From a virus, in IMG/VR virus record IMGVR_UViG_3300014205_000222: a DNA stretch of 64,000 bases; one strand, given 5' to 3'. Below, in pieces: positions 29,814-54,112 of the stretch. The first letter of the stretch is position 1; the number at the start of each line of letters is the position of its first letter. Position numbers and translations under genes: made by a program. The notes under the pieces were generated by a model that did not search any database, was not told the DNA's origin, and saw only the letters and a program-made list of their open reading frames with translations.

Positions 29814-30236
29814 ATGATACAATTACGTGGCAATACAATGTACGAAGAGTCTGAAACATATGGCGACGAAAACGAGATGCGAAGGGCAGCAATGCTCCAA
29901 GCAATACGAGACAGACCTGCACGATACAACTACAGGGGTGAAGGTTCAAAAACAGACCCAAGAGACTTAAGAGTAGATGAGCTTTCATTAAAAGAACTTG
30001 GAGAACTATACGGATTACCAGTTAAATTCCCACTTAACCGCCGTTCACCGGTAGACAGAGACCCAGTTAGACATGGAAAAGCATATGCCGTTGGTAAATG
30101 GCTTGCAGCCAGAAAAACAAAAAAACAACGTGCAAAACCAAAAAAAGAAACAACCAAAAAAACAACAAAAAATAAAAAAACGGTTTCTTTAAAAACACAG
30201 AAAAACAAGTCACAAAAGAAGGGTGGTAAGAAATGA
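29814..30236 (+). CDS. lysine-rich basic protein, paralog A (140 aa)
   Basis: ORF track; C-terminal K-rich tail; shares DPVRHGKAYAVGKWLAARK motif with next gene. Confidence 0.5.
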   Translation: MIQLRGNTMYEESETYGDENEMRRAAMLQAIRDRPARYNYRGEGSKTDPRDLRVDELSLKELGELYGLPVKFPLNRRSPVDRDPVRHGKAYAVGKWLAARKTKKQRAKPKKETTKKTTKNKKTVSLKTQKNKSQKKGGKK

Positions 30237-30718
30237 AAAACCCATTTTCAATTGAAATTAAACGCCCATCCCCAAAAAATGTATTAAAAACAATTGACAT
30301 CTCAAAAAGAAAAAAAGTTCAAACAAAATATCGGTGGTATCCCAAAAAAACAGCCGCAGGAGAAACAATATCTACACCAAAAAGCATTGATTTATCATCA
30401 ATTGATACAATAACCCCGGATATAGCACCAGTAAAAAATGTGGAATCAATGACATATGCCGAACTTCAACAAAGATTCAAGCTCCCGAAAGAATATGACA
30501 TATATCGAAATCCAGTTCGAAACGAGAATGCATACGCAGTAGGAATCTGGCTGGCAAAACGAAAAATAACACCAAAAACCAAAAAAACAAAACAAAAACC
30601 ACGCAAAAAATCAAGAAGCGAATATTACTACGAGGAAGAAACACCAACATGCCCTGTATGCAATTCATACATGGACTATATTAATGGTGGATACACGTGC
30701 CCCGACTGTGATTATTAA
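30233..30718 (+). CDS. lysine-rich basic protein, paralog B, with C-terminal zinc ribbon (161 aa)
   Basis: NPVRNENAYAVGIWLAKRK motif + K-rich tail + CPVCNS…CPDC. Confidence 0.5.
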   Translation: MKNPFSIEIKRPSPKNVLKTIDISKRKKVQTKYRWYPKKTAAGETISTPKSIDLSSIDTITPDIAPVKNVESMTYAELQQRFKLPKEYDIYRNPVRNENAYAVGIWLAKRKITPKTKKTKQKPRKKSRSEYYYEEETPTCPVCNSYMDYINGGYTCPDCDY

Positions 30719-31072: not shown

Positions 31073-33514
31073 TTATTCTGGTTTCCTTACAATCAAGAAA
31101 GAAACCACACCAAGACCAATCAGCGCAATTAACGCACCAAAACCCGGAGATTTCGGAGTTTCCGTTGGAACCACAGTTGGGTCAGGGGTTATGACCGGAG
31201 TTGGTACTTCGGTTACTACGGTTGTCGGCTGCGTTGTCGGCGGGGTTGTTGGAGGCGGTGTTGGTGTAGGAGTTGGTGTAGGAACAAACGCTACCAAGTC
31301 AAATACGCTGCTTCCAGACACGGAAACAACAATACCCGTAACCGAAACACGGTATTCGTCTACCTTAAACCCATCGGTATCAAACTCATACACAAACTTA
31401 TTGGCAGACTGTCCACCATCGACAACCTTCACAACGCTGCTGCTACCGCTAAACGTTCCCGGAGCAACTTTGTCGGTCGGTTTGAACGAAGATGAAAGCA
31501 CTTCTACAAGAATTTCATTCCCAACTGCAAGATTTGTGGTTCCAGTTACAGTAACCATATCTCCAACAGCCTTGCGCGGGATATTTGTGATGCTAATGTA
31601 TGGAGCTTCTATAATGAAACTGTTCTGAACATACAAATCGTCAACCGATGGATCGTTAATTGCATTTATTAAAGCAGTTGCTGCTTCAGACGACTGAAGG
31701 CTTCCAGAACCCTGTACCTTGAACTTTGTGTTCCCATATACAGGATACGTTCCTACAACAAGATCTCCGGATTTCCACACGTCAAACTGGTTGTTATACA
31801 TTGGGTGTTGAACAACAACATAATACTGACCATCTGCAAGATTGCCGGTATCCCCGCGTGTCAGCTTAAGTTCGTATGACGCATCATCATCAACAGAAAC
31901 CTGCTTTACCAACACATAATTCTTACCGAAAATCCAAACCATTACACCAGATGCTGAGTCTGTTCCTGCAGAACCGGCGACGATAATCTCATCGCCCCGT
32001 GCTGCGTTTTTAGGAGTAACTTCGGCACTCAACGTTGGCTTGCGAACAATAATCGATACTGTTGCATACTGTATGCCCTGTAAATTATCCCTGTTCCGAG
32101 GCTCGGAAACAGCATATACAGTATATGTTCCAGAATCAATTCCTATAGCGTCCGTTCTCCACTTGTAATCATACGAATCGTCTTCGCGGACATCTGCATT
32201 AACCATGTTTGAAACATTGATTGGTTCACGCGGCGAATCTAACTTTCCGCCAGCATTTGGAAGATTCGGTCCAGTTATAAAGAAATACGTGCTTTCAGTT
32301 TCAGTGTTTACACCAGCAAGTACAATCTCATCGCCAAGATAATATGAATTTTTATCGGTTACCAACGAGAGTTGCCCGGTGCTTACAGTCACTGTAACCT
32401 CACCCGATTTATACTCGCTGCCAAACTTATTTTCGGCACGAATGGTGTATCGTCTGTCCTGTGTGTCGCTGTACGTCTGGAAACCAATAGTTCTCTTACC
32501 AGAAGAATCTGTAGTTACCGTTGCAAAATATTTTGCATCACCGTTTGGAACACTTGCATCAATACGCTTACCACCCTCGGTAATATACCCCGGGTTTGCT
32601 CCAATCGAAACACCATACTGGTTCGATATAATTACAGGGGCCGGGTCTGTCTGTGTAGATTTTACAAACACATGATATTCCGTGTTTGGCTGACCAGTTA
32701 CCGTAACCGAAAATGCACCTCCACGGGTTACACTTGCAACATTCGACTCGACACGAATCCCTTCGGATGCAATAAAGAATGTTCTGACTACAGATTTTAC
32801 ATCCAAACTATTAACCCCGCACGTCGCATGAACCTTATATTCTCCGGCAGGGTATAACCGCGCAGAACCAGAACGAGCATCCAAATTCCATGCATCATTA
32901 GCAACTTTGTTTGCCCAATAAAACAGGGAACCAGTTAACGGAACGTTATCGATACTGCGATCACCATTTATTGTCACGAGTTTGTTATATACAGAACCAC
33001 TCGGTGCGGCAACCCTGATATCAAAATCAAACGCCTCTGTTGAATTTACATTCCGCGCGCGAATAAGATGCAGGTTAGACTCAACCCTGAAATCAACGCG
33101 CGATGTTCTGGCAATGCTTTCTCCGTCAACACGTTTGTCTGCCGGAATATCCCAAATCAGAACGTTAATCTGCGGGTTTTCGACATAGAATGCAACTCCG
33201 TGCGAAGTGCTACCATCCCACCGATACCATGCATCTGTTCTTCCAGTGAACGTTGATGGCGAAACATAGAAATCTGTCTTGCCAGTAACATCAACGACTC
33301 GCCCCGGCGAATCTATAGACGGATTCGAACCAGATGGGAACCATGCAATTTTATCATAACTGCCTACGGCAGCAGATATATCCAAACTTTCTTCCCCGAT
33401 GAACACCGTTCCCTCTTGCGCAACAGTGCTATAAGCTCCAGCAGAAACCGGAGCAGCTAAAGCAAAAGCCGCGAGGATCAGTGCAACAACCATAATTGAA
33501 AAATTCGCTTTCAT
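31073..33514 (-). CDS. large secreted cell-surface protein with Ig-like/beta-rich repeats, PT-rich linker and PGF-CTERM archaeosortase sorting signal
   Basis: Start at 33514 (GGTGGGAG SD, signal peptide MKANFSIMVVALILAAFALAAPVSA); C-terminus …PTPTPTPTPPPTTPPTTQPTT…PKSPGFGALIALIGLGVVSFLIVRKPE = PGF-CTERM; listed ORF start 33646 over-extended. Confidence 0.7.
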   Translation of the reverse strand: MKANFSIMVVALILAAFALAAPVSAGAYSTVAQEGTVFIGEESLDISAAVGSYDKIAWFPSGSNPSIDSPGRVVDVTGKTDFYVSPSTFTGRTDAWYRWDGSTSHGVAFYVENPQINVLIWDIPADKRVDGESIARTSRVDFRVESNLHLIRARNVNSTEAFDFDIRVAAPSGSVYNKLVTINGDRSIDNVPLTGSLFYWANKVANDAWNLDARSGSARLYPAGEYKVHATCGVNSLDVKSVVRTFFIASEGIRVESNVASVTRGGAFSVTVTGQPNTEYHVFVKSTQTDPAPVIISNQYGVSIGANPGYITEGGKRIDASVPNGDAKYFATVTTDSSGKRTIGFQTYSDTQDRRYTIRAENKFGSEYKSGEVTVTVSTGQLSLVTDKNSYYLGDEIVLAGVNTETESTYFFITGPNLPNAGGKLDSPREPINVSNMVNADVREDDSYDYKWRTDAIGIDSGTYTVYAVSEPRNRDNLQGIQYATVSIIVRKPTLSAEVTPKNAARGDEIIVAGSAGTDSASGVMVWIFGKNYVLVKQVSVDDDASYELKLTRGDTGNLADGQYYVVVQHPMYNNQFDVWKSGDLVVGTYPVYGNTKFKVQGSGSLQSSEAATALINAINDPSVDDLYVQNSFIIEAPYISITNIPRKAVGDMVTVTGTTNLAVGNEILVEVLSSSFKPTDKVAPGTFSGSSSVVKVVDGGQSANKFVYEFDTDGFKVDEYRVSVTGIVVSVSGSSVFDLVAFVPTPTPTPTPPPTTPPTTQPTTVVTEVPTPVITPDPTVVPTETPKSPGFGALIALIGLGVVSFLIVRKPE

Positions 33515-33660
33515 AGTCAATATCTTCTCCCACCGGGTTTTTTTCAAACACCCGGTGTCGTGTTTTACCACATAACAGATAATATTTCTAATTTCACATA
33601 TATAAGAGTTACGATAAATGATAAAATTATCAAACCAATGCGACAAAGAAATAATATTTA

Positions 33661-34188
33661 TTATTTTTTACGCGCTTTGACAGATGTTCGTTTTTTCGAA
33701 GATGTTTTTGGGGCACGAACCGGTGTTTTTGCGGTTTTTTTAACCGATGTGCGTTTTGTTTTAGAGACTTTCACCGGTTTTGTTACCGCAACCGGAGTGC
33801 TTACAGGATGAGCATAACTCTGTTTTCGTGACCGAAGTGCTTGCGGAAGCGAAGATGTGCGCGAACCGCCCAATCGCGAAGAAAAGGCATTCCATTTAGA
33901 ATTTATAACACACAACGCATCTTGCGGAGAGCAGTTATATGTTCCTGTAGGCGCGCGCGTATTATATTGAGAACCCGGTGGTGCCCGCGCAACACTCGCT
34001 GGTTCTGCGGATACATTTCCTTGTTGTAATGCAACTTGTTCTAAAATCCTAACAACCAGTTCCTTGACTTCCGGAGGCGTGGTGTTATCTTGAGACGGGT
34101 CATAATTATACGGTATAAACGTCCCATCAGGTAATGGCGGTGCACCAGAAACATATACTCCACCTTCTGCAGTTTGTATTTTAACCAT
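33661..34188 (-). CDS. protein with Lys/Arg-rich histone-H1-like C-terminal tail (175 aa)
   Basis: ORF track; C-terminus KPVKVSKTKRTSVKKTAKTPVRAPKTSSKKRTSVKARKK. Confidence 0.5.
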   Translation of the reverse strand: MVKIQTAEGGVYVSGAPPLPDGTFIPYNYDPSQDNTTPPEVKELVVRILEQVALQQGNVSAEPASVARAPPGSQYNTRAPTGTYNCSPQDALCVINSKWNAFSSRLGGSRTSSLPQALRSRKQSYAHPVSTPVAVTKPVKVSKTKRTSVKKTAKTPVRAPKTSSKKRTSVKARKK

Positions 34189-35491: not shown

Positions 35492-36259
35492 TTAATTATT
35501 TTTTAGATTTTTGTTTCCCGCGCGTTTTTTCGCGGTGCAATTTGACTTTTTGCACGTGCGCGCGGTTTTTTTCGTGCTATATTTTTGTGGTCGTGTTCCT
35601 TTTGGAATTGTTTTTATTTGCCACCCATCATTTTCGGAACCATATCTACTACCATACCAATCAACATAATTTCTATCATTTGTAACATTTACATACGCCC
35701 CACTCTGTGAGTCATAATATCCACTAACAGGAGGACCATCGGGCTTCCACCCCATTTGTACTTGTCGGTCAAGATCTCGAAATTTCTGCGCGCGCACGTC
35801 TTCTGCAGTTTGCAAATTCGCATAAGGATTTGTAGATTGTAAAATCTGACGTGCCGCAGCACTTGTAGATGTAGTTCTCGATGGCGAAACTTGTGCGACG
35901 CGAGTAATTGGAGCTCCGCTGTAGGGCTGCGATGGATTTACCAAAGCCGCTTCCTTACGCCGTTCAACCTCACGCATAAACGCTTCGCGCCCCAAATTTA
36001 TATATGGGTTTGTAGCGTCTAAAATTGCCTGAACTTCTGGGCTACTTCTCCGATATAAATCAGACCGCGATGGTTTTAGAACAAGTGGAATGCGATTGTT
36101 ATCCGGGTAATATACCTTTGTTTGTGCATACGTCTGTTGAAGTGTTTTGGGTTTGACTCTTCCCTTTATTTTTTTATTTGCCTTTTTTCTAACCATATAT
36201 TTATGTATGTATCTAATCATATATATAAATATGTTCGAATATAAACAGTGTATCGTCAT
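35492..36259 (-). CDS. basic protein with internal ILxxTNPYxNL repeats (255 aa; likely start Met 36196)
   Basis: ORF track; ILDATNPYINL / ILQSTNPYANL duplicated motif; basic N- and C-termini. Confidence 0.45.
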   Translation of the reverse strand: MTIHCLYSNIFIYMIRYIHKYMVRKKANKKIKGRVKPKTLQQTYAQTKVYYPDNNRIPLVLKPSRSDLYRRSSPEVQAILDATNPYINLGREAFMREVERRKEAALVNPSQPYSGAPITRVAQVSPSRTTSTSAAARQILQSTNPYANLQTAEDVRAQKFRDLDRQVQMGWKPDGPPVSGYYDSQSGAYVNVTNDRNYVDWYGSRYGSENDGWQIKTIPKGTRPQKYSTKKTARTCKKSNCTAKKRAGNKNLKNN

Positions 36260-38601: not shown

Positions 38602-38907
38602 CTAATCTTCCTCAAAGTCATCATCGTTCTCATACCTATACAATTTATAATTTAACATAAACGTGTAAATACCAATAATTGTAACATTCACAATTAAAAT
38701 TCCCAAAATGTATAAGACATACGCAAGAGATTTTACCACATCAAACGTTGTCCCGCCATACATCATTGTATTGGCATGCATAAAAATGGTAATAAACGCA
38801 AATATATTTGTAATTGAGACAACGACTAGAAAAAATGCTGAAACCCCAATTGGCAACTTTGAACGGATATCCATATCAATCGTTATTTTCAAATGTTGGG
38901 TTATCAT
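38602..38907 (-). CDS. 3-TM membrane protein with acidic C-terminus (101 aa)
   Basis: ORF track. Confidence 0.4.
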   Translation of the reverse strand: MITQHLKITIDMDIRSKLPIGVSAFFLVVVSITNIFAFITIFMHANTMMYGGTTFDVVKSLAYVLYILGILIVNVTIIGIYTFMLNYKLYRYENDDDFEED

Positions 38908-39202
38908 TCATATATTCATTTATTAATTCATCTAACTGCTCTTCATGAATTTTTGCAGTTTTAATATACTCTTCAGTTTTTTCTGACAATTTCCTCTTTA
39001 CACTTTCATCATCACAATTTTCTACAATTTTTTCATAGAATGCAATTCCCTTTGAAACACCAAACTTATCAAAAAACGAATCGATTTTGCGCTGAGCAAC
39101 ATACGAATCTGCAATATGATATGCGACATAAATCAAATATGAACCGAATACACCCATGAAAAAACCTATGTTAAATGACAACAGATCAGTTACGCCAAAC
39201 AT
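38876..39202 (-). CDS. membrane-anchored protein (108 aa)
   Basis: ORF track. Confidence 0.4.
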   Translation of the reverse strand: MFGVTDLLSFNIGFFMGVFGSYLIYVAYHIADSYVAQRKIDSFFDKFGVSKGIAFYEKIVENCDDESVKRKLSEKTEEYIKTAKIHEEQLDELINEYMNDNPTFENND

Positions 39203-39392
39203 GGGTATATATTATAAACGCAAAACTATAAAAAGAAATCGTTGACATATAAGATATAATATATATCAAACCATATAATTTAAAACGTGGTTGGTTTTTT
39301 AAAAAAATAAGATTGCAAAGCGCATTTACTCAAAATAGTCGTAATGTTTAAATACTAAACAAACACCAATATATATAAGGTGATTTACGAAC

Positions 39393-39728
39393 ATGGATGT
39401 AACCAAATTAACTCCACACGGTGCCGATGTTAAAATCGGAGCTGGTGTTGGTATCCAGCCGCAAAACGTTGGTCAGACAGCACATAAAAAACAAAGAAAA
39501 CAAAATAAAACAATGGCAATCCCTTATGCATGCATAAAACGATTGGCACAAAACCAAAGCAGTGGAATGAGAATTTCAAGCGATGCTGTTTTTGTAATTG
39601 AAAAAGCACTCGAAGACTTCTCTGCGAAATTGATAAGTGTTTCGAAATCGTATACAGAACATAGAAACCGCAAGACCATAACATCTCTTGATGTTGATGT
39701 TGCACTAAAAAACATTGCTGAAATGTGA
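39393..39728 (+). CDS. archaeal histone (HMf-like histone fold) with 40-aa basic N-terminal extension (canonical fold starts at Met 39513)
   Basis: …AIPYACIKRLAQNQSSGMRISSDAVFVIEKALEDFSAKLISVSKSYTEHRNRKTITSLDVDVAL… aligns with HMfB (LPIAPIGRII…RVS.DA…HAGRKTI…D); TATA ATATATATAA at 39371-80. Confidence 0.7.
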   Translation: MDVTKLTPHGADVKIGAGVGIQPQNVGQTAHKKQRKQNKTMAIPYACIKRLAQNQSSGMRISSDAVFVIEKALEDFSAKLISVSKSYTEHRNRKTITSLDVDVALKNIAEM

Positions 39729-39738
39729 GAACCACATT

Positions 39739-40224
39739 TCACAACTTTTTTACATTTGTATTACCAAGTGCATCACGGAGTAAAAAATACCAGTGTGTTG
39801 TGGTATTGTGTCCATCTTGCACAGCAAAAGACACAAAATATTTATAAAAATATGATTTAGATACATCAAATGTATAATCAAAATCGTCGTGGTATTCTCC
39901 AGAATACAACTCGTATAACCCACCGCCACGATCCATAGTTCCACCATCCGAGCCATATATTTTCAGTGTTGCTACATCCGCACGGCTATCAAAACTATGT
40001 TTGACAAAAATATAATCCTTTTCATATATAACTTCTAAAACGTTTCCAGAATCATCATCTGTATTATCAACACCGAAAACAAATCCATATAATACGTACC
40101 CAACTCCCAAAATAACAGTAAGAATCAAAAAAAACGAAACGATTCTTAAAAATTTTGTGTACAGCGTAGGCTCATTCAAATCCGGGTCTACAAATTGTAC
40201 TGGGTGTTTAGAACGCACCGTCAT
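39739..40224 (-). CDS. signal-anchored protein (161 aa)
   Basis: ORF track; N-terminal TM. Confidence 0.45.
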   Translation of the reverse strand: MTVRSKHPVQFVDPDLNEPTLYTKFLRIVSFFLILTVILGVGYVLYGFVFGVDNTDDDSGNVLEVIYEKDYIFVKHSFDSRADVATLKIYGSDGGTMDRGGGLYELYSGEYHDDFDYTFDVSKSYFYKYFVSFAVQDGHNTTTHWYFLLRDALGNTNVKKL

Positions 40225-40240
40225 AATACCATAAAATCAA

Positions 40241-40732
40241 TTATACACACTGAATGTTTCCCTTGCGGAAATCATCTGCATCTTCTTCTTCCGCCTTGCG
40301 CTTTTTTCTTCCCAAAAACGAAAACAAACCGCGCTTTTTCTTTTTCGGTTTCGGTTGTTTAGAAGTTTCGGAAGGTTCAACCCCAAACAATGGCTGCAAC
40401 TCTCCCCATTTATCTGGTTGGGTTGGTCTCTGCCCGCGCGCAGGATTCACCTGTTCTTGATGCGGTTGCGGAAATTCGTTATTTTGTTGGTTATCTTCTG
40501 CAAACAAATCAAAAACTTCTTTTACCGACAACCGCTTTTGTGAAGTTCCTATATATGGTTGATATGTTTCATTAAACTCTTCATCTGATAAAATTATTTG
40601 TTCTCCTTCTGGAGTATTTACAAGCCACTCCCCTTCTTTAGCTTCGATATCATCACCATTTTCACCAGCAACTAATATATCTTCTTTCATTCTCACCGCA
40701 TCGACAACGACGGGTTTTTGCATATATTTCAT
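40241..40732 (-). CDS. hypothetical acidic/basic-tailed protein (163 aa)
   Basis: ORF track; C-terminal KPKKKKRGLFSFLGRKKRK. Confidence 0.45.
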   Translation of the reverse strand: MKYMQKPVVVDAVRMKEDILVAGENGDDIEAKEGEWLVNTPEGEQIILSDEEFNETYQPYIGTSQKRLSVKEVFDLFAEDNQQNNEFPQPHQEQVNPARGQRPTQPDKWGELQPLFGVEPSETSKQPKPKKKKRGLFSFLGRKKRKAEEEDADDFRKGNIQCV

Positions 40733-41597: not shown

Positions 41598-43028
41598 ATG
41601 GTAATTAAAAAACAATCTCACAAAACTATAAAAAAAACATCGAAAGTTACACCCGCGCGCATTAAAAAAAGAATAATAAAAAGGAAAAAACGAATAAACC
41701 CGGAACAAATACCGCGCACTGCTCATAACATAACCTCAATGTTGAATCGACATGGTGCAACATGTTATATTGTAGGCGGATTCCCACGAGATACAATTCG
41801 AGGAATTTCTGCCAAAGATATAGATATTGAAGTGCACGGGTTAGATATCGACACTATAGCACAAATCTTGTCAAAACACTTTTCAGTAAATTATGTCGGG
41901 AAATCGTTTGGCGTGCTTAAAGTCAAAGAACCCGGTTCAACCGAGGAAATAGATGTGTCTGTACCGCGCGCAGACAGTGTTGGAAGAAAACCAGATGTCA
42001 CGTTTTTCAAAAATGCAACCCCAAAAGACGCAGCTTCAAGAAGAGATTTTACAATTAATGCTTTAATGTGGGATACAAAAACAAACACAATGGTTGACCC
42101 ATATGGTGGTATGCAAGATTTAAAATCTGGAACAATACGTTCAATATCCCAAAAAAGTTTTACAGATGACCCTCTCCGAGTTGTACGCGCTGCACAGTTT
42201 GCATCGCGGTTTGGCTATTCAATTGAACCTGAAACCGTTACCATGGCAAAACAATCTACACTACATGGTCTATCGATGGAACGTATACGTGAAGAAATGT
42301 TAAAAGCATTATTAAAGAGTAAAGCCCCATCAAGATTTTTCAATTCTCTCGATGGCATGGGGCAACTGTCTGCAGTTTTTCCAGAAATAGCAATTTTAAA
42401 ATCTATACCTCAAGATGAATATCACCACCCGGAGGGAAATGTATATACCCACACAATGATGGTTCTAGACCGTGTTCCAAACGACCCTATACTACGTTTA
42501 ACAGCATTACTCCACGATACTGGAAAGGCAGTCACGACATCAAACTCCAATGGGAGAATAAAATCGATTGGACACGAAAGACAAAGCACGATAATTGCAG
42601 AGAGATTTCTGCGCAAATTCAAATTCGACAACGCAACTATAAAAATGGTTTTGCCACTTGTAGATAACCACATGATTCCCGGGTTTTTGATAAATTCCGG
42701 AACAAAAATAACACTAGCAAAAAAGAACGCACTTATCGCACGCGTAGCCGGTGGTTATTCAAAAATTATGCGCGACCCACGAGAAGCACTAGAAAAATAT
42801 AAATATTTAATATCATTTGCAATTGCAGACCATGGTGCGGATTACTACAGCGACAAATTCTTGACACTCCCTCCAATACAACACTACGTATCCCACATCG
42901 ATGCACGCGCGCTTTCTGAAAAATACCAAGGAAAAGCACTCGGAGATGCGATTGTCGAGAGATATACAAACCAGATAAATACACCACCAAAACAAATGCG
43001 AAAAATGAGAAAGTTAACGAAGAGATAG
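41598..43028 (+). CDS. cca: CCA-adding tRNA nucleotidyltransferase, class II (bacterial/eukaryal type) with HD phosphohydrolase domain
   Basis: GGFPRDTIRG…AKDIDIEV head motif; HD motifs HHPEGNVYTHT and LLHDTGK; 476 aa. Confidence 0.8.
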   Translation: MVIKKQSHKTIKKTSKVTPARIKKRIIKRKKRINPEQIPRTAHNITSMLNRHGATCYIVGGFPRDTIRGISAKDIDIEVHGLDIDTIAQILSKHFSVNYVGKSFGVLKVKEPGSTEEIDVSVPRADSVGRKPDVTFFKNATPKDAASRRDFTINALMWDTKTNTMVDPYGGMQDLKSGTIRSISQKSFTDDPLRVVRAAQFASRFGYSIEPETVTMAKQSTLHGLSMERIREEMLKALLKSKAPSRFFNSLDGMGQLSAVFPEIAILKSIPQDEYHHPEGNVYTHTMMVLDRVPNDPILRLTALLHDTGKAVTTSNSNGRIKSIGHERQSTIIAERFLRKFKFDNATIKMVLPLVDNHMIPGFLINSGTKITLAKKNALIARVAGGYSKIMRDPREALEKYKYLISFAIADHGADYYSDKFLTLPPIQHYVSHIDARALSEKYQGKALGDAIVERYTNQINTPPKQMRKMRKLTKR

Positions 43029-45256: not shown

Positions 45257-45919
45257 TCAATATGAATTTGCTATCTGCAATTTTGATTGGAAGTATTCAC
45301 CGGTATCTACATTCATTGCGGTCAATTTACCATTCCATCCCGCACCGGTATCCATAAGAGTAAGATTTCCAATTGTTAGTGGTTTTGTGTCCTTTGTTAT
45401 GAATTGTGTTGTTGTGTGACCAATAAATATATGCGGATAATCGACAACATTTCCATCGAGAATATAGTTTATCAACTGCCTATCCCATACTAATGTTTCC
45501 AAATCATTATATTCTACTTTTTTCGTAGGGTTAAACCCACCGTGTACATATACACGTCCTTTGGAGTCTATGTAATATGGTTTTCCAGATTCAAGAAACT
45601 TTATGTGGCTGTCCGGGACACTTTTATATGAAAAACCATACGCGCGCATGGTTGCAAGTCCACCCTGATGAACCCACACAGGAAGTTCGATTCCGGTTTT
45701 CATCCAGTTCAATGCCCATAAATCGTGGTTTCCAATAACCAATATACAATTCTTAATTTTTAAAAGTTCTTCGATTACTTTCTGTGTGTCATATCCACCA
45801 TCAACAACATCACCTAAAACGATAAGTGTGTCACGGTCATAATCAAAAGACATCTTTTCAATTACTTCGCACAGAGCAACAAAACGCCCATGTATATCGC
45901 CAATAACATAAACACACAT
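45257..45919 (-). CDS. calcineurin-like metallophosphoesterase (lambda PPase / ApaH-like)
   Basis: GDIHGR, LGDVVDGG, GNHD motifs in order (PPP-family motifs I-III). Confidence 0.7.
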   Translation of the reverse strand: MCVYVIGDIHGRFVALCEVIEKMSFDYDRDTLIVLGDVVDGGYDTQKVIEELLKIKNCILVIGNHDLWALNWMKTGIELPVWVHQGGLATMRAYGFSYKSVPDSHIKFLESGKPYYIDSKGRVYVHGGFNPTKKVEYNDLETLVWDRQLINYILDGNVVDYPHIFIGHTTTQFITKDTKPLTIGNLTLMDTGAGWNGKLTAMNVDTGEYFQSKLQIANSY

Positions 45920-45945: not shown

Positions 45946-47472
45946 TTAAATTTTTGTTGTTGGGATTTTGAAATTTTCAATTTCCTGTATCATTGTCTCG
46001 CGGTTTGTCTCGAAGAGGCTTATATAATTGAATATCTTATCACTGTATCCAGCAACATTAACTACATTTTTATGACCTTCTGGTAACGTTGCAAGCCCAT
46101 ATCCTGCGAGATCTACAAGATACACGAACACATTTGGATTTATATTCCTCTGATATTTTAGAAACTCTTTTACAAATGATTCTGAACCATATGCCGATGT
46201 ATTATACAGCACCATATCACTGAAAAGCACAACCCGGTCAACAAACTTTTTGTTATCGTTGAGATACCGAATTGCCTTCCAACCATTTGTAGAGTGCCCA
46301 AGATGCTGTTCTGTAACACTTTCGATATTCTGTAATATTGAGCTGCCACCCATTGGGATAACCGCAAAATCTGTTCCAAATGCTGAAATAATAGATTTTG
46401 TCGATATATAATCCAATATAGACCCGTACAGAGATGCAACCTGCGCGCGAGATACCACAGATTTTTCACTGAGGGCAACCGTCATACTACCACTAACATC
46501 AATCGATGTAAATGTGATACCACCAAGTTTTGGAACATTATTTAAACTAATTTGTAGAGCCTTCTCCAAGCCTTTCAAAACCACATTAACGTTTTCCGTT
46601 GCTACATCGTATTTTCTAGTTTTTACAATAGAATGCGCCGTATAAAACCTGTATGGGAATTGTTTTGATGACCGTATGGCACGTTCATCTACAATGCGCG
46701 ACATATAAAGTTCTGGTTCGATTCCAAACTTAAGAAAATTATTTAGATTACGGAGTAGCGCCATATACCCCATGTCGGGGATTTCCTTTTCCCAATTTTC
46801 TTTGGTAGAACCTTCACGCATTATGTTAGCATTCCACGACGAATTAACAACCTTTTTGTTGATAATTCTTTCAAAGACATCAGCCATATCCTTATTCAGC
46901 GGTTTTGGGTGGACGACGCACATCGCGTCTTTAAGGCTTACACTCGACCCATCACCGAGATACTTACCAAACTGATACTCATCGAAATTATAAAAAGCGC
47001 GTGATAAACCCTTTTTAAGAACCATTGGTACATGTGCACGAGCCTTTTCATTATGCGAATTCAACTGAAACTGATACGCCAGCATTTCAGTAATTTCGTC
47101 AGGTCTCTGAATTGTAGAGGTAACAATTTTACTAAAATCGTTGTGACCTTTGCCAGACGGAAGATTTGCAGCTTCCACTAACAACATGATAGGAACGGTA
47201 CGAAGATACAAGTTGTGGCGCACATATGCCGCAAGATTAAACACAAACTTCGGGTCTAATTCGGTGACTTCTCGGATTAAGTCTTTAAGTTCTTTATCCG
47301 ATTGTGTAGCACTGGTATAAAACTTTGGCTCACCGACCATTGCAGATGCAACACGAAGGTAAAGTTCCAATTTCTTTGACACATTAAACGCGATTCCGCC
47401 TTCAAAATTAGTTGTTACATCGCCACGTGATTCTAAAACGCTTGTTGTCGTTTTTTTCGTATTAAACTTCAT
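45946..47472 (-). CDS. rsr: Ro60/Rsr-like TROVE-domain RNA-binding protein with C-terminal vWA/MIDAS
   Basis: 508 aa; N-terminal …NFEGGIAFNVSKKLELYLRVASAMVGEPKFYTS… resembles TROVE start (N.AGG.AF…RL.RFLILGS…TYY); C-terminal DVSGSM MIDAS motif; AAGGTG SD upstream. Confidence 0.65.
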   Translation of the reverse strand: MKFNTKKTTTSVLESRGDVTTNFEGGIAFNVSKKLELYLRVASAMVGEPKFYTSATQSDKELKDLIREVTELDPKFVFNLAAYVRHNLYLRTVPIMLLVEAANLPSGKGHNDFSKIVTSTIQRPDEITEMLAYQFQLNSHNEKARAHVPMVLKKGLSRAFYNFDEYQFGKYLGDGSSVSLKDAMCVVHPKPLNKDMADVFERIINKKVVNSSWNANIMREGSTKENWEKEIPDMGYMALLRNLNNFLKFGIEPELYMSRIVDERAIRSSKQFPYRFYTAHSIVKTRKYDVATENVNVVLKGLEKALQISLNNVPKLGGITFTSIDVSGSMTVALSEKSVVSRAQVASLYGSILDYISTKSIISAFGTDFAVIPMGGSSILQNIESVTEQHLGHSTNGWKAIRYLNDNKKFVDRVVLFSDMVLYNTSAYGSESFVKEFLKYQRNINPNVFVYLVDLAGYGLATLPEGHKNVVNVAGYSDKIFNYISLFETNRETMIQEIENFKIPTTKI

Positions 47473-49098: not shown

Positions 49099-50643
49099 TT
49101 ATTTTTTAGAGGTTTTCGCAGTTTTCTTTACAAAACCATCGACACCCTGATTTGAAGATTCAACCGATTTTATATCAACCGGAGACGGAACCGTTCCACT
49201 AACTGGCGGCTGTGGTTGTGGTGGTGTTACTACAGTTGCTTTTTTTGTATCGTCTACATACGAACCCTTCGAAGGTTCTGGCGCGGTTGCAGGTTTTTTA
49301 ATAATGGTTTGCATCACGTTTGCCAACCGGGAATACAGATCCGGGTCAGATTCCTTAACAATATCCATCAGGGTTGAAAAACTGCCAGCCGTTGATAGCC
49401 CGCCCTTCGGAGTGAAGAGATCCATGAAGTCTTCTGGTTTTCCAGAACCATAATATTTTATAGTTGCATTCGCAAGTGCCTCTGCAAGTGCAAGACCAAT
49501 ACGCTCATCCTTTTCAATCGTACGGATTGCCGTTGCATATTCCTGCTGTTTTCTCTGTGCATCTGCATATTTGTCAAGACCTTCTGCCTCTGCGAATTTC
49601 TTGGCTCTTAATACATCGGCTTCGGATGTACCTTTCTTACGAATAATTTCGGCTTCGGCAGAACCCATTGCCTCAATTTTCGCACCTTCTCCGCGACCTG
49701 TAAGTTCAAGTTTCTGTTTTTCTCCTTCTGCAAGTTCAATTGCCATGCGCTTTTCTCCATCGGCAGTACGAACTTTGGCATCTGCTTCAATTTCCGCAAA
49801 CATGACTTTAGATGCTCGCTCAACATCCATCGCTTTCTCTACCGCGCGTTTCTTTTCTGTAGAAACTACCTGATTCTTTTCTTCTTCGCGCTTGCCAACA
49901 GATTCTTCAACTTCAATCTTTCTCGTTTGTGCAGCCTGATAAGCTTCTACCTCTGAAATTTCTGCCTGTCTCTTTCTGGTTGCAATCTCCTGTCTAGACA
50001 ACGAATTAATTTCTGCCTCTTTTTTTGCAGATATATCATGAATTACGCTTGTATGATCAGAATCTTTGAAATCTACAATCGAAACGTTGATAATTTCGAC
50101 ACCCCAACGAAGCATATCATCTTTAATATCTGACAACACATGGTCTGCAATCTCGCTTCGCTTTGCAATTACATCCTCAACTGCAAAATTAGCAGTTGTC
50201 TTACGAATAGCGGCAATAATGATTTCCTGAATCCCGGTCTTGAAATCTGTCATAGTTTTCCCCGGGAAACGCTGGGCTGCTTCTAAAACATTGTTGACAC
50301 GACAATAAACACTAGCATCAATAGTAAACCGCGCATTTCCTTTTGCAAAAGTTTGATAATTCTCAATCTTAATTTCCATATTTTCAAGCGACATGCGGGT
50401 TACAATAACACCAATGAATGGCATCCACCACGGAAACTGATAATACACCGTGTTTGTACCACGCTCTTCAGTAACCGTTTTATCTGCGGAATAAATTTCA
50501 ACAGCGCCCTTACGCGTAACAACATCTGCATATTTTGGTGGCACAACTCCCCTGAGAGTTACTAGATAAATAACCACCAACACTGCAAAAATACAACCCA
50601 TCACAAACAGAAACGATGTCTGCAAATCCATATCAAAAATCAT
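49099..50643 (-). CDS. SPFH/band-7 (flotillin-like) membrane-scaffold protein
   Basis: N-terminal TM, SPFH-like core, long EA/KR coiled-coil (…EAEINSLSRQEIATRKRQAEI…), Pro-rich tail; 514 aa like YqiK/flotillin. Confidence 0.65.
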   Translation of the reverse strand: MIFDMDLQTSFLFVMGCIFAVLVVIYLVTLRGVVPPKYADVVTRKGAVEIYSADKTVTEERGTNTVYYQFPWWMPFIGVIVTRMSLENMEIKIENYQTFAKGNARFTIDASVYCRVNNVLEAAQRFPGKTMTDFKTGIQEIIIAAIRKTTANFAVEDVIAKRSEIADHVLSDIKDDMLRWGVEIINVSIVDFKDSDHTSVIHDISAKKEAEINSLSRQEIATRKRQAEISEVEAYQAAQTRKIEVEESVGKREEEKNQVVSTEKKRAVEKAMDVERASKVMFAEIEADAKVRTADGEKRMAIELAEGEKQKLELTGRGEGAKIEAMGSAEAEIIRKKGTSEADVLRAKKFAEAEGLDKYADAQRKQQEYATAIRTIEKDERIGLALAEALANATIKYYGSGKPEDFMDLFTPKGGLSTAGSFSTLMDIVKESDPDLYSRLANVMQTIIKKPATAPEPSKGSYVDDTKKATVVTPPQPQPPVSGTVPSPVDIKSVESSNQGVDGFVKKTAKTSKK

Positions 50644-53332: not shown

Positions 53333-54112
53333 TTATTTTTTATTTGTTTTATTTCTTTTAGGTTTTGTTTTCATTTTACGTTCTTCAGTAAACCACCTAG
53401 AAACAATCTCCGGTGGCACGCGTTTCTTCTTTTTACCGCCACCACGTGGGGTATAATCAATACTATCAATATAATCGACATCCTCGCCCATTAATATTGC
53501 TTCGTAGTTATCAATTGTTCTACCAGTTTTTAAATCTTTGCGCTTTCCGCCATACAAACTTTTAAGTGCTTCTGGATTTGTACTACGTATAAAATCGGAA
53601 AGTGCACCACGCCCTCCGCCTTTAGCATGCATATTACGTATTTCTGGTATTGAACCACGAACTATGGTTGGGTTTCGTTTAAATTCATAAATTTCTGCAA
53701 CCGCGCGTTCAATTGATATCTGGTCAAATAAATCAACTTCAATATAATGTTCACGATCAAGCCAAAATCTATTTGGTATATTTGTATCACGTATCACATT
53801 ATATTTATATGCAAAATCCCTTGCGGCACGTTTTGCTTCTAAAACGCCACGGATACGACCGGGAATGTCATATGATTTTGGGGCATCGCCACGAATATAT
53901 CCGTGGTGAAAATTCACATCTTCTTGGATTCCGCGCGGTTCAGTTTGCGGTTCGCGCACGTGTTGTGATTCAACATCGTCTCCGGTTGTACCACCCATAT
54001 GATATCTCTTTTTAACAATTTTCTTTTTGGCACCCGCAGCACTTTTTACTTTTAAAATCGGTTTTTTCTTCCTAATTGAACCAACGGTGCGCTTATTATT
54101 TTTTATTACCAT
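53333..54112 (-). CDS. hypothetical protein with Lys-rich N- and C-termini (259 aa)
   Basis: ORF track. Confidence 0.45.
   Translation of the reverse strand: MVIKNNKRTVGSIRKKKPILKVKSAAGAKKKIVKKRYHMGGTTGDDVESQHVREPQTEPRGIQEDVNFHHGYIRGDAPKSYDIPGRIRGVLEAKRAARDFAYKYNVIRDTNIPNRFWLDREHYIEVDLFDQISIERAVAEIYEFKRNPTIVRGSIPEIRNMHAKGGGRGALSDFIRSTNPEALKSLYGGKRKDLKTGRTIDNYEAILMGEDVDYIDSIDYTPRGGGKKKKRVPPEIVSRWFTEERKMKTKPKRNKTNKK

Follow-up and report, generated by a model that had tools for sequence, protein, structure and literature searches.

Tails on histones underlie chromatin regulation in eukaryotes, and the locus described here raises the question of whether a virus-like element of archaea encodes a histone with such an extension, whether the extension is translated, and what a protein of this kind would do. 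The gene lies at 39393–39728 on the plus strand of a 64,000-nucleotide stretch of DNA, IMG/VR record IMGVR_UViG_3300014205_000222 (the whole stretch is termed the window hereafter), which corresponds to positions ~35,036–99,035 (reversed) of the 181,586 bp JGI contig 3300037067 Ga0378408_0000108. An initial annotation, made from the nucleotide sequence alone, described a histone fold preceded by a 40-residue basic extension reminiscent of eukaryotic histone tails, and grouped the gene with other basic proteins as a possible viral packaging set. The reading favoured here, which we consider probable, is that the gene encodes a 111-residue HMf-like histone with an obligatory basic tail of ~40 residues, conserved as a single copy in a small lineage of large virus-like elements that probably belong to Methanomicrobiales. 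The features of the gene are as follows, related loci and proteins being designated by L and P numbers.

39339–39354 (+): putative B recognition element (BRE) and TATA box of the histone gene, TCGTAAT-G-TTTAAATA, conserved in six loci
39368–39376 (+): second conserved AT-rich box, AATATATAT, read as a promoter-proximal or initiator region; kept in the window and in L002 and L003, with L004, L016 and L022 rich in A and T at this place
39379–39383 (+): Shine-Dalgarno-like GGTGA, 9 nt 5′ of the ATG at 39393; GGTG stands 8–11 nt before the upstream ATG in six loci
39393–39482 (+): distal tail, residues 1–30, variable in sequence and conserved in presence, predicted to be disordered (open frame; rates of non-synonymous and synonymous change, dN and dS, about equal; predicted local distance difference test score, pLDDT, below 50)
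39483–39515 (+): basic patch where the tail joins the fold, H31-K-K-Q-R-K-Q-N-K-T-M41, recognised from conservation, net charge and selection
39516–39725 (+): histone fold, residues 42–111, with α1, a loop L1 one residue longer than that of HMfB, α2, L2 and a full-length α3, recognised from Pfam, a PDB search, hhalign, structure prediction and residue mapping
39746–39751 (+): run of six T residues, read directly from the sequence 18 nt past the histone stop codon; candidate archaeal oligo-T terminator

The open reading frame (ORF) at 39393–39728 specifies 111 residues (MDVTKLTPHGADVKIGAGVGIQPQNVGQTAHKKQRKQNKTMAIPYACIKRLAQNQSSGMRISSDAVFVIEKALEDFSAKLISVSKSYTEHRNRKTITSLDVDVALKNIAEM). Two Pfam families matched the product above their gathering scores, namely PF00125 (Histone) over residues ~31–106 (E = 1.9e-11, 44.7 bits, cut-off 26.4) and PF00808 (CBFD_NFYB_HMF) over residues 42–105 (E = 2.6e-11, 44.1 bits, cut-off 21.4). 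Profile comparison with an archaeal histone set, a check of the kind that the initial annotation had advised, gave an hhalign probability of 99.7% with a score of 126 (E = 1.4e-25), and the RKTI motif that had first drawn attention to the protein is present at residues 93–96. An AlphaFold2 (AF2) model of the monomer, computed from 12 family sequences, displays helices at residues 39–55, 63–90 and 98–110, with a pLDDT of about 90 from residue 50 onward and below 50 for residues 1–31. Using Foldseek, the model superposed on HMfA, HMfB, HPhA and the HMfB–DNA structure 5T5K at 2.1–2.2 Å over 65–68 residues (template modelling score 0.84–0.89). The third helix, at residues 98–110, is predicted with a pLDDT above 90. 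Schwab et al. (2024, PMC11390915) described α3-truncated classes of prokaryotic histones and regard an α3 of ~10 residues or more as full-length; the window histone, with its full-length α3, therefore falls outside those classes. Together, the Pfam matches (E ~ 2e-11), the profile alignment and the superposition on HMfA and HMfB bear out the assignment of a histone fold at a level well beyond chance, and the window protein is a full-length ‘nucleosomal’ archaeal histone of the HMf type. Its identity to HMf is about 28–33%, and it has no close cellular relative.

The content of the element was read over ~83 kb of the 181.6-kb contig, and the walk beyond the window reached ~19 kb past one of its ends and 8 kb past the other. 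When six-frame ORFs from the window, its flanks and all fetched loci were searched with three histone hidden Markov models (HMMs), a single histone-fold ORF was found in the window and flanks, and no second histone or H3-like partner was detected in any of this sequence.

Close relatives P0002 and P0003 were recovered by a word-indexed search of 5.8 billion proteins, and P0004 (E = 7e-21) by an exhaustive HMMER search of 1.84 billion representative proteins; P0004, used as the query in turn, yielded eight more. The resulting family has 12 cluster representatives of 101–113 residues. All of its members lie on metagenomic contigs that have one common neighbourhood. IMG/VR was scanned with the single histone sequence, with the alignment of its family and with the primase, all three times with no relative found, and no relative of the histone was found in 185,579 GTDB species-representative genomes by pattern and tblastn searches, which detect close relatives only. 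A scan of metagenome contigs returned two short loci only. The search for related viruses that had been proposed at the outset thus led to syntenic metagenomic contigs and to nothing in IMG/VR. No published description of this histone family or of the element was found in literature searches.

The 40-residue extension and its basic patch (HKKQRKQNK at residues 31–39) are present as initially reported. In a sequence as AT-rich as this one, 40 open codons would precede an ATG by chance with a probability of ~0.15. It is the comparison with relatives, and not the open frame alone, that establishes the tail. In all 12 members an N-terminal extension of 32–44 residues leads up to an IPYAC motif, at which α1 starts, and in three close relatives the tail before the equivalent of Met41 measures 40–41 residues. 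The end of the tail follows the consensus KKxGRK(S/A)(S/T)xK(S/T)M directly before IPYAC; across the family K32 and R35 are invariant, and G34 and K39 nearly so. Every member has a net charge of +5 over the final 15 residues of the tail, with values of +3 to +6 for the tail as a whole. Between L002 and L003 the 11 codons of the patch show five synonymous changes and one non-synonymous change (proportions of synonymous and non-synonymous differences, pS and pN, of 0.73 and 0.04), a pattern similar to that of the histone fold (pS ~0.75, pN ~0.13), which indicates that the basic patch is under purifying selection. From these comparisons it is very likely that the tail is translated and under selection. 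Tryptic peptides of the tail of the window histone are LTPHGADVK and IGAGVGIQPQNVGQTAHK.

Two further observations concern the tails of relatives. A subgroup of proteins (P0138–P0143; L004:2427–2768) keeps the extreme N-terminus MT(D/E)GN(D/E)PK and has a variable mid-tail. The tails of several relatives contain TPxK or KPxK, resembling SPKK-type minor-groove motifs, which the window tail does not have.

Predicted DNA-binding residues and possible targets of the histone

The family was mapped residue by residue onto HMfB and assessed by the criteria set out in Henneman et al. (PMC6136690), with the following result.

R10 and R19 of HMfB, minor-groove anchors: R50 and R60 in the family, invariant in 12 of 12
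K53/T54, L2 contacts: K94/T95, invariant in 12 of 12
R52–D59, salt bridge of the fold (RxTxxxD): R93–D100, invariant in 12 of 12
H49 and D59, four-helix bundle: H90 and D100, in 11 of 12 and 12 of 12, respectively
L46: Tyr87, replaced in 12 of 12
L62: V, A or I, hydrophobic character retained
G16: Ser (Cys in P0004), replaced, adjoining the one-residue insertion in L1
K30–E61, stacking pair: K71–D/E102, kept
E34–R65, stacking pair: partly kept
D14–R48, stacking pair: N/D54–E89, lost

This mapping suggests a DNA-binding dimer that is probably able to form tetramers. Four changes count against further assembly, namely L46Y, G16S, the L1 insertion and the loss of the D14–R48 pair, and these render the formation of tetramers and hypernucleosomes uncertain; a bulkier residue at position 46 was rated ‘+/-’ for the dimer–dimer (tetramer) interface, to which L46, H49, D59 and L62 belong (PMC6136690). 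A small residue at position 16 and the stacking pairs are the features that permit a hypernucleosome, and growth into long ones is likewise uncertain.

From the mapped residues and the model we infer an oligomeric state, a mode of DNA wrapping, a path for the tail and a role in infection. Transcription would start near 39377 under the gene's own BRE/TATA promoter, and the ribosome, bound at GGTGA, would begin at the ATG at 39393. As the window and flanks hold a single histone-fold ORF, the product would form a homodimer through its histone fold or pair with a host histone. The dimer would bind and bend ~30 bp of DNA through R50 and R60 in the minor groove and through K94/T95 of L2, and dimers would join through the four-helix bundle of His90 and Asp100. 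Because archaeal histone dimers have the N-terminus of α1 on their DNA-binding face, the +5 patch KKxGRKxxxK, which would leave the N-terminal end of α1 at that face, should contact DNA. It may thus form an extra DNA-binding arm running into or through the minor groove, raising affinity and neutralising charge; in a tailed histone of Heimdallarchaeota, residues R17–R19 were modelled through the DNA minor groove (PMC6136690). The variable distal tail would extend outward in disordered form. In the course of infection, the histone could coat the replicating DNA of the element, join or disturb the histone–DNA filaments of the host, or both.

An alternative that we regard as unlikely, albeit with some weight, is that the histone acts on the host. 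It would then form heterodimers with HMf-type host histones and cap, loosen or re-target their hypernucleosomes, as a capstone or poison subunit, or it would serve as a histone-fold transcription cofactor. The four changes listed above, which weaken hypernucleosome growth by the criteria applied here, are consistent with such a role, as are the presence of one histone gene in the element and the fact that CBFD_NFYB_HMF scores as well as Histone. Moreover, if the element is a tailed virus, its DNA would be packaged by a terminase, as in Caudoviricetes, and would not carry histones. On the other hand, the DNA-contact residues are all invariant, which argues for direct DNA binding, and binding to the DNA of the element and to that of the host fit the present data alike.

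Start of translation and expression signals

The exact TTTAAATA match occupies 39347–39354 and is preceded by a BRE-like CGTAAT at 39340–39345. The sequence TCGTAA..TTWAWAT is invariant in the window, L002, L003 and L004, and is also found 5′ of the L016 and L022 genes. These six loci share one order of signals, TCGTAA-N2-TTWAWAT, the AT-rich box, GGTG, 8–11 nt and ATG, between which the spacers have diverged; many genes in the window have GGTG(A) 5–10 nt before their ATG, as the ordinary ribosome-binding signal of the element. The architecture of archaeal promoters, in which a BRE adjoins a TATA box centred at about -26/-27, is the basis for this reading. With the box at 39347–39354 as the putative TATA box, that spacing would place the transcription start near 39377, giving a 16-nt leader that holds GGTGA and in which the ATG at 39393 is the first AUG. 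The BRE/TATA motif was also considered as a promoter class common to many genes and was rejected as such, with three matches in the window, a number not above chance.

The initial annotation had taken the second AT-rich box for the TATA box (at 39371–39380), downstream enough to favour a tail-less start at 39513. A tail-less product was not upheld, given the conserved tail, the GGTG and upstream ATG of six loci, and the sequence of P0004. The codons at the Met41 position of P0004 are AAG ACA ATC ATT CCA, with no ATG, GTG or TTG, and so a canonical tail-less histone cannot be made there. In L002 the later ATG chosen by the gene caller gives a protein of 98 residues, and the conserved ATG behind GGTG one of 112 residues.

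Several points nonetheless weigh against a tail that is always present and constrained throughout. Between relatives the distal tail has dN about equal to dS while its frame is still open, a pattern that speaks of no constraint on its sequence. At the Met41 position P0143 has Leu encoded by TTG, a possible start codon, and this protein was not counted as evidence for the tail; the absence of an internal Met, taken as proof of the tail, is weakened for P0143 and retained for P0004. The box at 39368–39376 could itself be the TATA box, which would put the transcription start just past 39393. Finally, a TATA-like CATAAAAAA, made up of Lys codons of the patch, stands at 39483–39491, ~26 nt 5′ of the ATG at 39513, and a minor leaderless, tail-less isoform is possible in this element.

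The last of these points leads to an alternative that is improbable in our view, in which the gene gives two products, the tailed protein of 111 residues and a tail-less one of 71, the latter from an internal leaderless transcript or by internal initiation. Met41 is kept in 10 of the 12 members and replaced by the possible start TTG in an eleventh, and CATAAAAAA has the right spacing for a leaderless start at 39513, with a similar A-rich box in L003. However, this box is formed by Lys codons, is not conserved in L002 or L004 and has no BRE-like element, P0004 has no internal start, and Met41 may be kept for structure, since in the AF2 model it lies in an N-terminal extension of α1. If two products were made, one gene would supply the element with two histone variants.

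It is most improbable that, as the initial annotation had allowed, only the 71-residue, tail-less histone is made from the ATG at 39513 with the upstream 120 nt as an open 5′ leader, for although the ~0.15 chance of 40 open codons, the near equality of dN and dS in the distal tail, the possible displacement of the transcription start past 39393 by the box at 39368–39376 and the TATA-like CATAAAAAA could all be accommodated by such a leader, the patch upstream of Met41 keeps its amino acids while its codons change synonymously, all 12 members have an open tail frame, GGTG and ATG mark the upstream start in six loci, no ribosome-binding site was found 5′ of 39513, and P0004 has no start codon at the corresponding position.

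The element, its host and its other basic proteins

The tailed histone stands in a conserved neighbourhood, and its neighbours, together with other genes of the window referred to below, are the following.

38876–39202 (−): divergent gene for a protein of 108 residues whose N-terminus forms a transmembrane helix and whose C-terminus is acidic and helical, directly upstream of the histone in all compared loci
39739–40224 (−): convergent, syntenic membrane protein of 161 residues; tblastn matches adjoining the 3′ side of the histone gene in L002 and L003, and a gene of similar size in L004
40241–40732 (−): syntenic PGDYG protein of 163 residues with a K-rich C-terminus (Pfam PGDYG, 5.5e-6), conserved in L002, L003, L004 and L006
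36231–36584: PTH2, among tRNA genes
41598–43028: class-II-type CCA-adding enzyme with an HD domain, interleaved with tRNA genes
45257–45919: metallophosphatase, among tRNA genes
45946–47472: Ro60/TROVE protein, among tRNA genes
21019–21837: RlaP, further from the tRNA array
29814–30236 and 30233–30718 (+): two adjacent paralogous ORFs of 140 and 161 residues with Lys-rich C-terminal segments, the second ending in a zinc ribbon
33661–34188 (−): ORF of 175 residues whose C-terminal 40 residues are rich in K, T, S and P, immediately upstream of the DUF3821/PGF-CTERM gene

The shared neighbourhood consists of the divergent gene (104–111 residues), the histone, the convergent membrane protein of ~160 residues and the PGDYG protein, followed by the metallophosphatase and TROVE genes. 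Homologues of the divergent gene with 56–70% identity occur in L002 (7065–7379), L003 (799–1113), L004 (1631–1966) and L006, and in L022 a gene of 104 residues takes its place, by position only. No Pfam family was found for the divergent protein, which may be a functional partner of the histone. A more distant homologue (32.5% identity, E = 6e-15) was found at 9481–9792 of L020 (ENA ERZ4239754 NODE_5106), an element of higher GC content that encodes a histone of 85 residues (10001–10258) with a basic tail of 17 residues and that has homologues of PCNA, DUF5131 and R2K_3 in common with the window element. As the L020 histone is accompanied by the same divergent partner, PCNA, DUF5131 and R2K_3, the pair appears to be old and conserved, and not a recent capture from a host; the histone appears to be a core gene of long standing in the lineage. 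The group of 85-residue histones to which it belongs (L020, P0034, P0038 and P0146), with 17-residue basic tails (MSDGTKKAAPKSKGERTAIPNACVKRIA...), is found on higher-GC virus-like contigs that have PCNA, DUF5131 and R2K_3 genes in common with the window element, and tail length varies in the wider lineage.

Between 36585 and 52742 the minus strand of the window carries 28 tRNA genes for 19 amino acids, with Asp missing. The window also encodes PCNA, a serine recombinase domain, dozens of small ORFs without homologues, and a phage-type replication and recombination module of a prim-pol/DUF3987 primase-helicase, an SF2 helicase of the ResIII/DEAD type (57507–58916), an exonuclease and a Sak4-like ATPase (phrog_1366 at 6e-79; 44–49% identity to phage proteins). 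Giant PKD/CBM proteins adjoin the window, and a flanking Gly-rich/Kelch/PKD protein of 1011 residues is tail-fibre-like (phrog_863, of the tail category, 3.8e-17; phrog_2295, 8.6e-57).

Signs that the element is archaeal are its BRE/TATA-type signals, PCNA, PTH2 and an 857-residue DUF3821 surface protein with a PGF-CTERM anchor (31073–33646, minus strand). The closest cellular relatives of this last protein are in metagenome-assembled genomes (MAGs) of Methanomicrobiales and Methanoregulaceae, at 39–42% identity. The host is thus probably a member of Methanomicrobiales, an assignment that is weakened by its resting on one surface protein. A closer copy of the DUF3821 protein (46%, L007) is encoded on a contig of 47 kb that had been assigned to a ‘Patescibacteria’ MAG; this contig is probably a mis-binned related element.

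A viral nature is probable. Against it stands the result that no capsid, portal, terminase or tape-measure gene was matched in PHROGs and Pfam searches of 63 window ORFs and the flanking large proteins, over the ~83 kb read; without a capsid, portal or terminase gene in that sequence, ‘virus’ is not proven. The locus looks extrachromosomal and virus-like, and not chromosomal. That the locus is cellular, either a chromosomal region or an integrated provirus of an uncultured archaeon, with the histone a cellular variant, is quite improbable. The missing capsid, terminase and portal genes would be explained in this way, and a serine recombinase domain in the window and the occurrence of one relative on a contig of a GenBank MAG are compatible with it. 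However, no ribosomal or other housekeeping genes were found in the window; the array of 28 tRNA genes, the phage-type replication module and the many ORFs without homologues are typical of large viruses; close relatives of the histone were found in 0 of 185,579 species-representative genomes; and synteny is kept across contigs from several samples that are made only of such genes.

The initial annotation had further proposed that the histone belongs to a set of virus-encoded chromatin or packaging proteins. The two Lys-rich ORFs at 29814–30718 are indeed paralogues, with 38% identity over 45 residues (E = 1e-7) and a common AYAVGxWLA core followed by the Lys-rich segments. The H1-like description of the protein at 33661–34188 stands as regards its K/T/P/S-rich C-terminal 40 residues and fails as regards any chromatin-protein domain, for which no Pfam match was detected. 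In none of these three proteins (29814–30236, 30233–30718 and 33661–34188) was a recognisable chromatin domain or a significant Pfam family found. Moreover, segments of 20 residues with at least nine K or R occur in 10 of the 103 predicted window proteins, including the CCA-adding enzyme, the primase and the PGDYG protein, so that Lys-rich tails are a general trait of this AT-rich element; examples are the N-termini of 41598–43028, 35492–36259 and 53333–54112 and the C-terminus of 40241–40732. A packaging set was accordingly not borne out, and the notion of a chromatin gene set was rejected on the spread of K/R segments and on the finding of no chromatin-modifier domains in the window. AT-rich composition, nucleic-acid tethering and packaging are candidate reasons for basic extensions on ~10% of the proteins. 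Outside the window, the C-terminus of a 1535-residue protein (L018:3–3491) gave a sub-threshold compositional match to the HC2 (H1-like) nucleoprotein family.

Other features of the window were recorded alongside these. The tRNA array with the CCA-adding enzyme, PTH2, TROVE, metallophosphatase and RlaP has the look of a large module of tRNA and RNA-repair genes in an archaeal element. Glycosylation genes lie at 24537–27084 (minus strand), among them a GT2 domain fused to a GtrA-like transmembrane domain and a PMT_2 dolichyl-phosphate-mannose-type transferase, and an SPFH/Band7 protein is encoded at 49099–50643. From 500 to 9400 (plus strand) there is a run of very small ORFs, many of them Cys-rich (CxxC pairs, zinc-ribbon-like) and without detectable homologues, a block that is conserved in L014 and L015 from other samples. 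At ~10000–12000 the GC skew passes from ~+0.25 to ~-0.15 where gene orientation turns from plus to minus, near 10.97 kb, which may be an origin or terminus of replication.

Comparison with known histones

A resemblance to eukaryotic H4 had to be considered, since a single-sequence phmmer search of the PDB placed H4 at the top (1.3e-7) ahead of HMfA (4.6e-5), with an alignment to H4 that enters the tail at low confidence. In the search of 1.84 billion proteins, proteins of 200–520 residues with H4 numbering ranked directly after the family. These proved to be concatenated H4/H3/H2B gene models, and their high rank arises because the scores of such models sum several domains. Per domain, archaeal singlets scored 41–46 bits, divergent H4-like proteins 38–40 bits and canonical H4 30.5 bits. 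Consistent with this, hhalign scored the family at 126 (E = 1.4e-25) against the archaeal HMf-type set and at 89 (E = 2e-16) against the H4 set, the H4 set itself scoring 90 against the archaeal one, and the window protein was given 75.7 bits by the archaeal HMM and 60.5 bits by the H4 HMM. Orthology to H4 was rejected in view of the concatenated top matches and this preference for archaeal histones.

The hhalign alignment to H4 starts at residue 38 of the query, and the tail is therefore not aligned with the H4 tail, GKGGKGLGKGGAKRHRK. Neither for the tail, described at first as reminiscent of eukaryotic histone tails, nor for the fold is a specific relation to eukaryotic histones supported. 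What the two proteins have in common is a similar length (111 versus 102–103 residues), a basic patch ~10 residues before α1 and the motif YTEH..RKT.T..DV..ALK, of which YT.H..RKT is also found in other archaeal-like singlets. They differ in that no H3-type partner, obligatory for H4, was detected in the window and flanks and in that the tails do not align by profile. By these scores the window histone is about as distant from H4 as other archaeal histones are, and the resemblance appears superficial.

A conserved tailed family on a methanogen-linked mobile element would mean that histone tails arise and persist under selection in a very different setting. A single gene of 111 residues is also a system suited to asking what a tail does to an archaeal histone, in terms of DNA affinity, filament length and bridging. 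The family extends the very recent recognition of histones in archaeal viruses, which a 2022 review of viral histones did not mention, and bears on how viruses whose hosts have histones handle host chromatin; the interest would be greater if the histone builds viral chromatin or remodels that of the host. A bolder proposal, which we consider speculative and improbable as a whole, is that large methanogen viruses keep an old core histone with a conserved promoter of its own and a conserved, membrane-anchored partner, that its eukaryote-like basic tail evolved independently of Asgard archaea and eukaryotes, and that it builds viral chromatin on replicating or packaged DNA. If this were true, the element would be the first archaeal-virus counterpart of the giant viruses that package nucleosomes, and a natural experiment on the evolution of histone tails.

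Among cellular histones, HMfA and HMfB of Methanothermus fervidus, HTkA/B and HPhA (PF00808) share with the window family the fold, the full-length α3 and the equivalents of R10, R19, R52–D59, K53/T54 and H49. Unlike the tail-less HMf histones, the window family has a basic tail of 32–44 residues, one additional residue in L1, Tyr in place of L46 and Ser in place of G16, and is encoded on a virus-like element. Archaeal nucleosomal histones are mostly tail-less, long basic N-terminal tails being described in Asgard histones and in one histone each of Huberarchaea and Bathyarchaeota (PMC6136690, PMC11390915). With the tailed histones of Heimdallarchaeota LC_3 (HA), Huberarchaea, Bathyarchaeota B23 and Asgard archaea, compared here by description, the window family shares the archaeal fold, a long, positively charged and presumably disordered tail, and basic residues in a row where the tail meets α1. 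All 12 members have an extension of at least 20 residues that is net positive and has a basic base at α1, the features by which a tailed histone was defined. Those tailed histones are cellular genes of Asgard archaea, DPANN and Bathyarchaeia, whereas the present family is found on an element linked to Methanomicrobiales (Euryarchaeota).

Histones are also carried by other archaeal elements. HMf-like viral histones (MFVH), mined from IMG/VR, have been reported in Caudoviricetes predicted for Methanobacteriota (Liu et al., bioRxiv 10.1101/2024.12.06.627149), and they likewise are archaeal-like histones on a virus or virus-like element of methanogen-type hosts. In that study N-terminal Lys-rich tails were described only for the face-to-face (α3-truncated) class and not for the HMf-like one. 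IMG/VR, the source of the MFVH, yielded no relative of the window family in the scans made here, and of that family the tail is the defining conserved feature. The histones of Borgs, large extrachromosomal elements of Methanoperedens, are near host histones and HPhA of P. horikoshii, are often present in multiple copies and are accompanied by putative modifying enzymes (bioRxiv 10.1101/2024.11.05.622173). The window element resembles Borgs in being a large archaeal element that carries a histone and differs in having a single, diverged, tailed one; no acetyltransferase, deacetylase, methyltransferase, SET or SNF2-type remodeller domain was detected in the window. Neither archaeal-like histones in viruses nor archaeal histones with tails are new in themselves; what is new here is an archaeal-type histone on a virus-like element that is defined by a long tail with a fixed basic patch.

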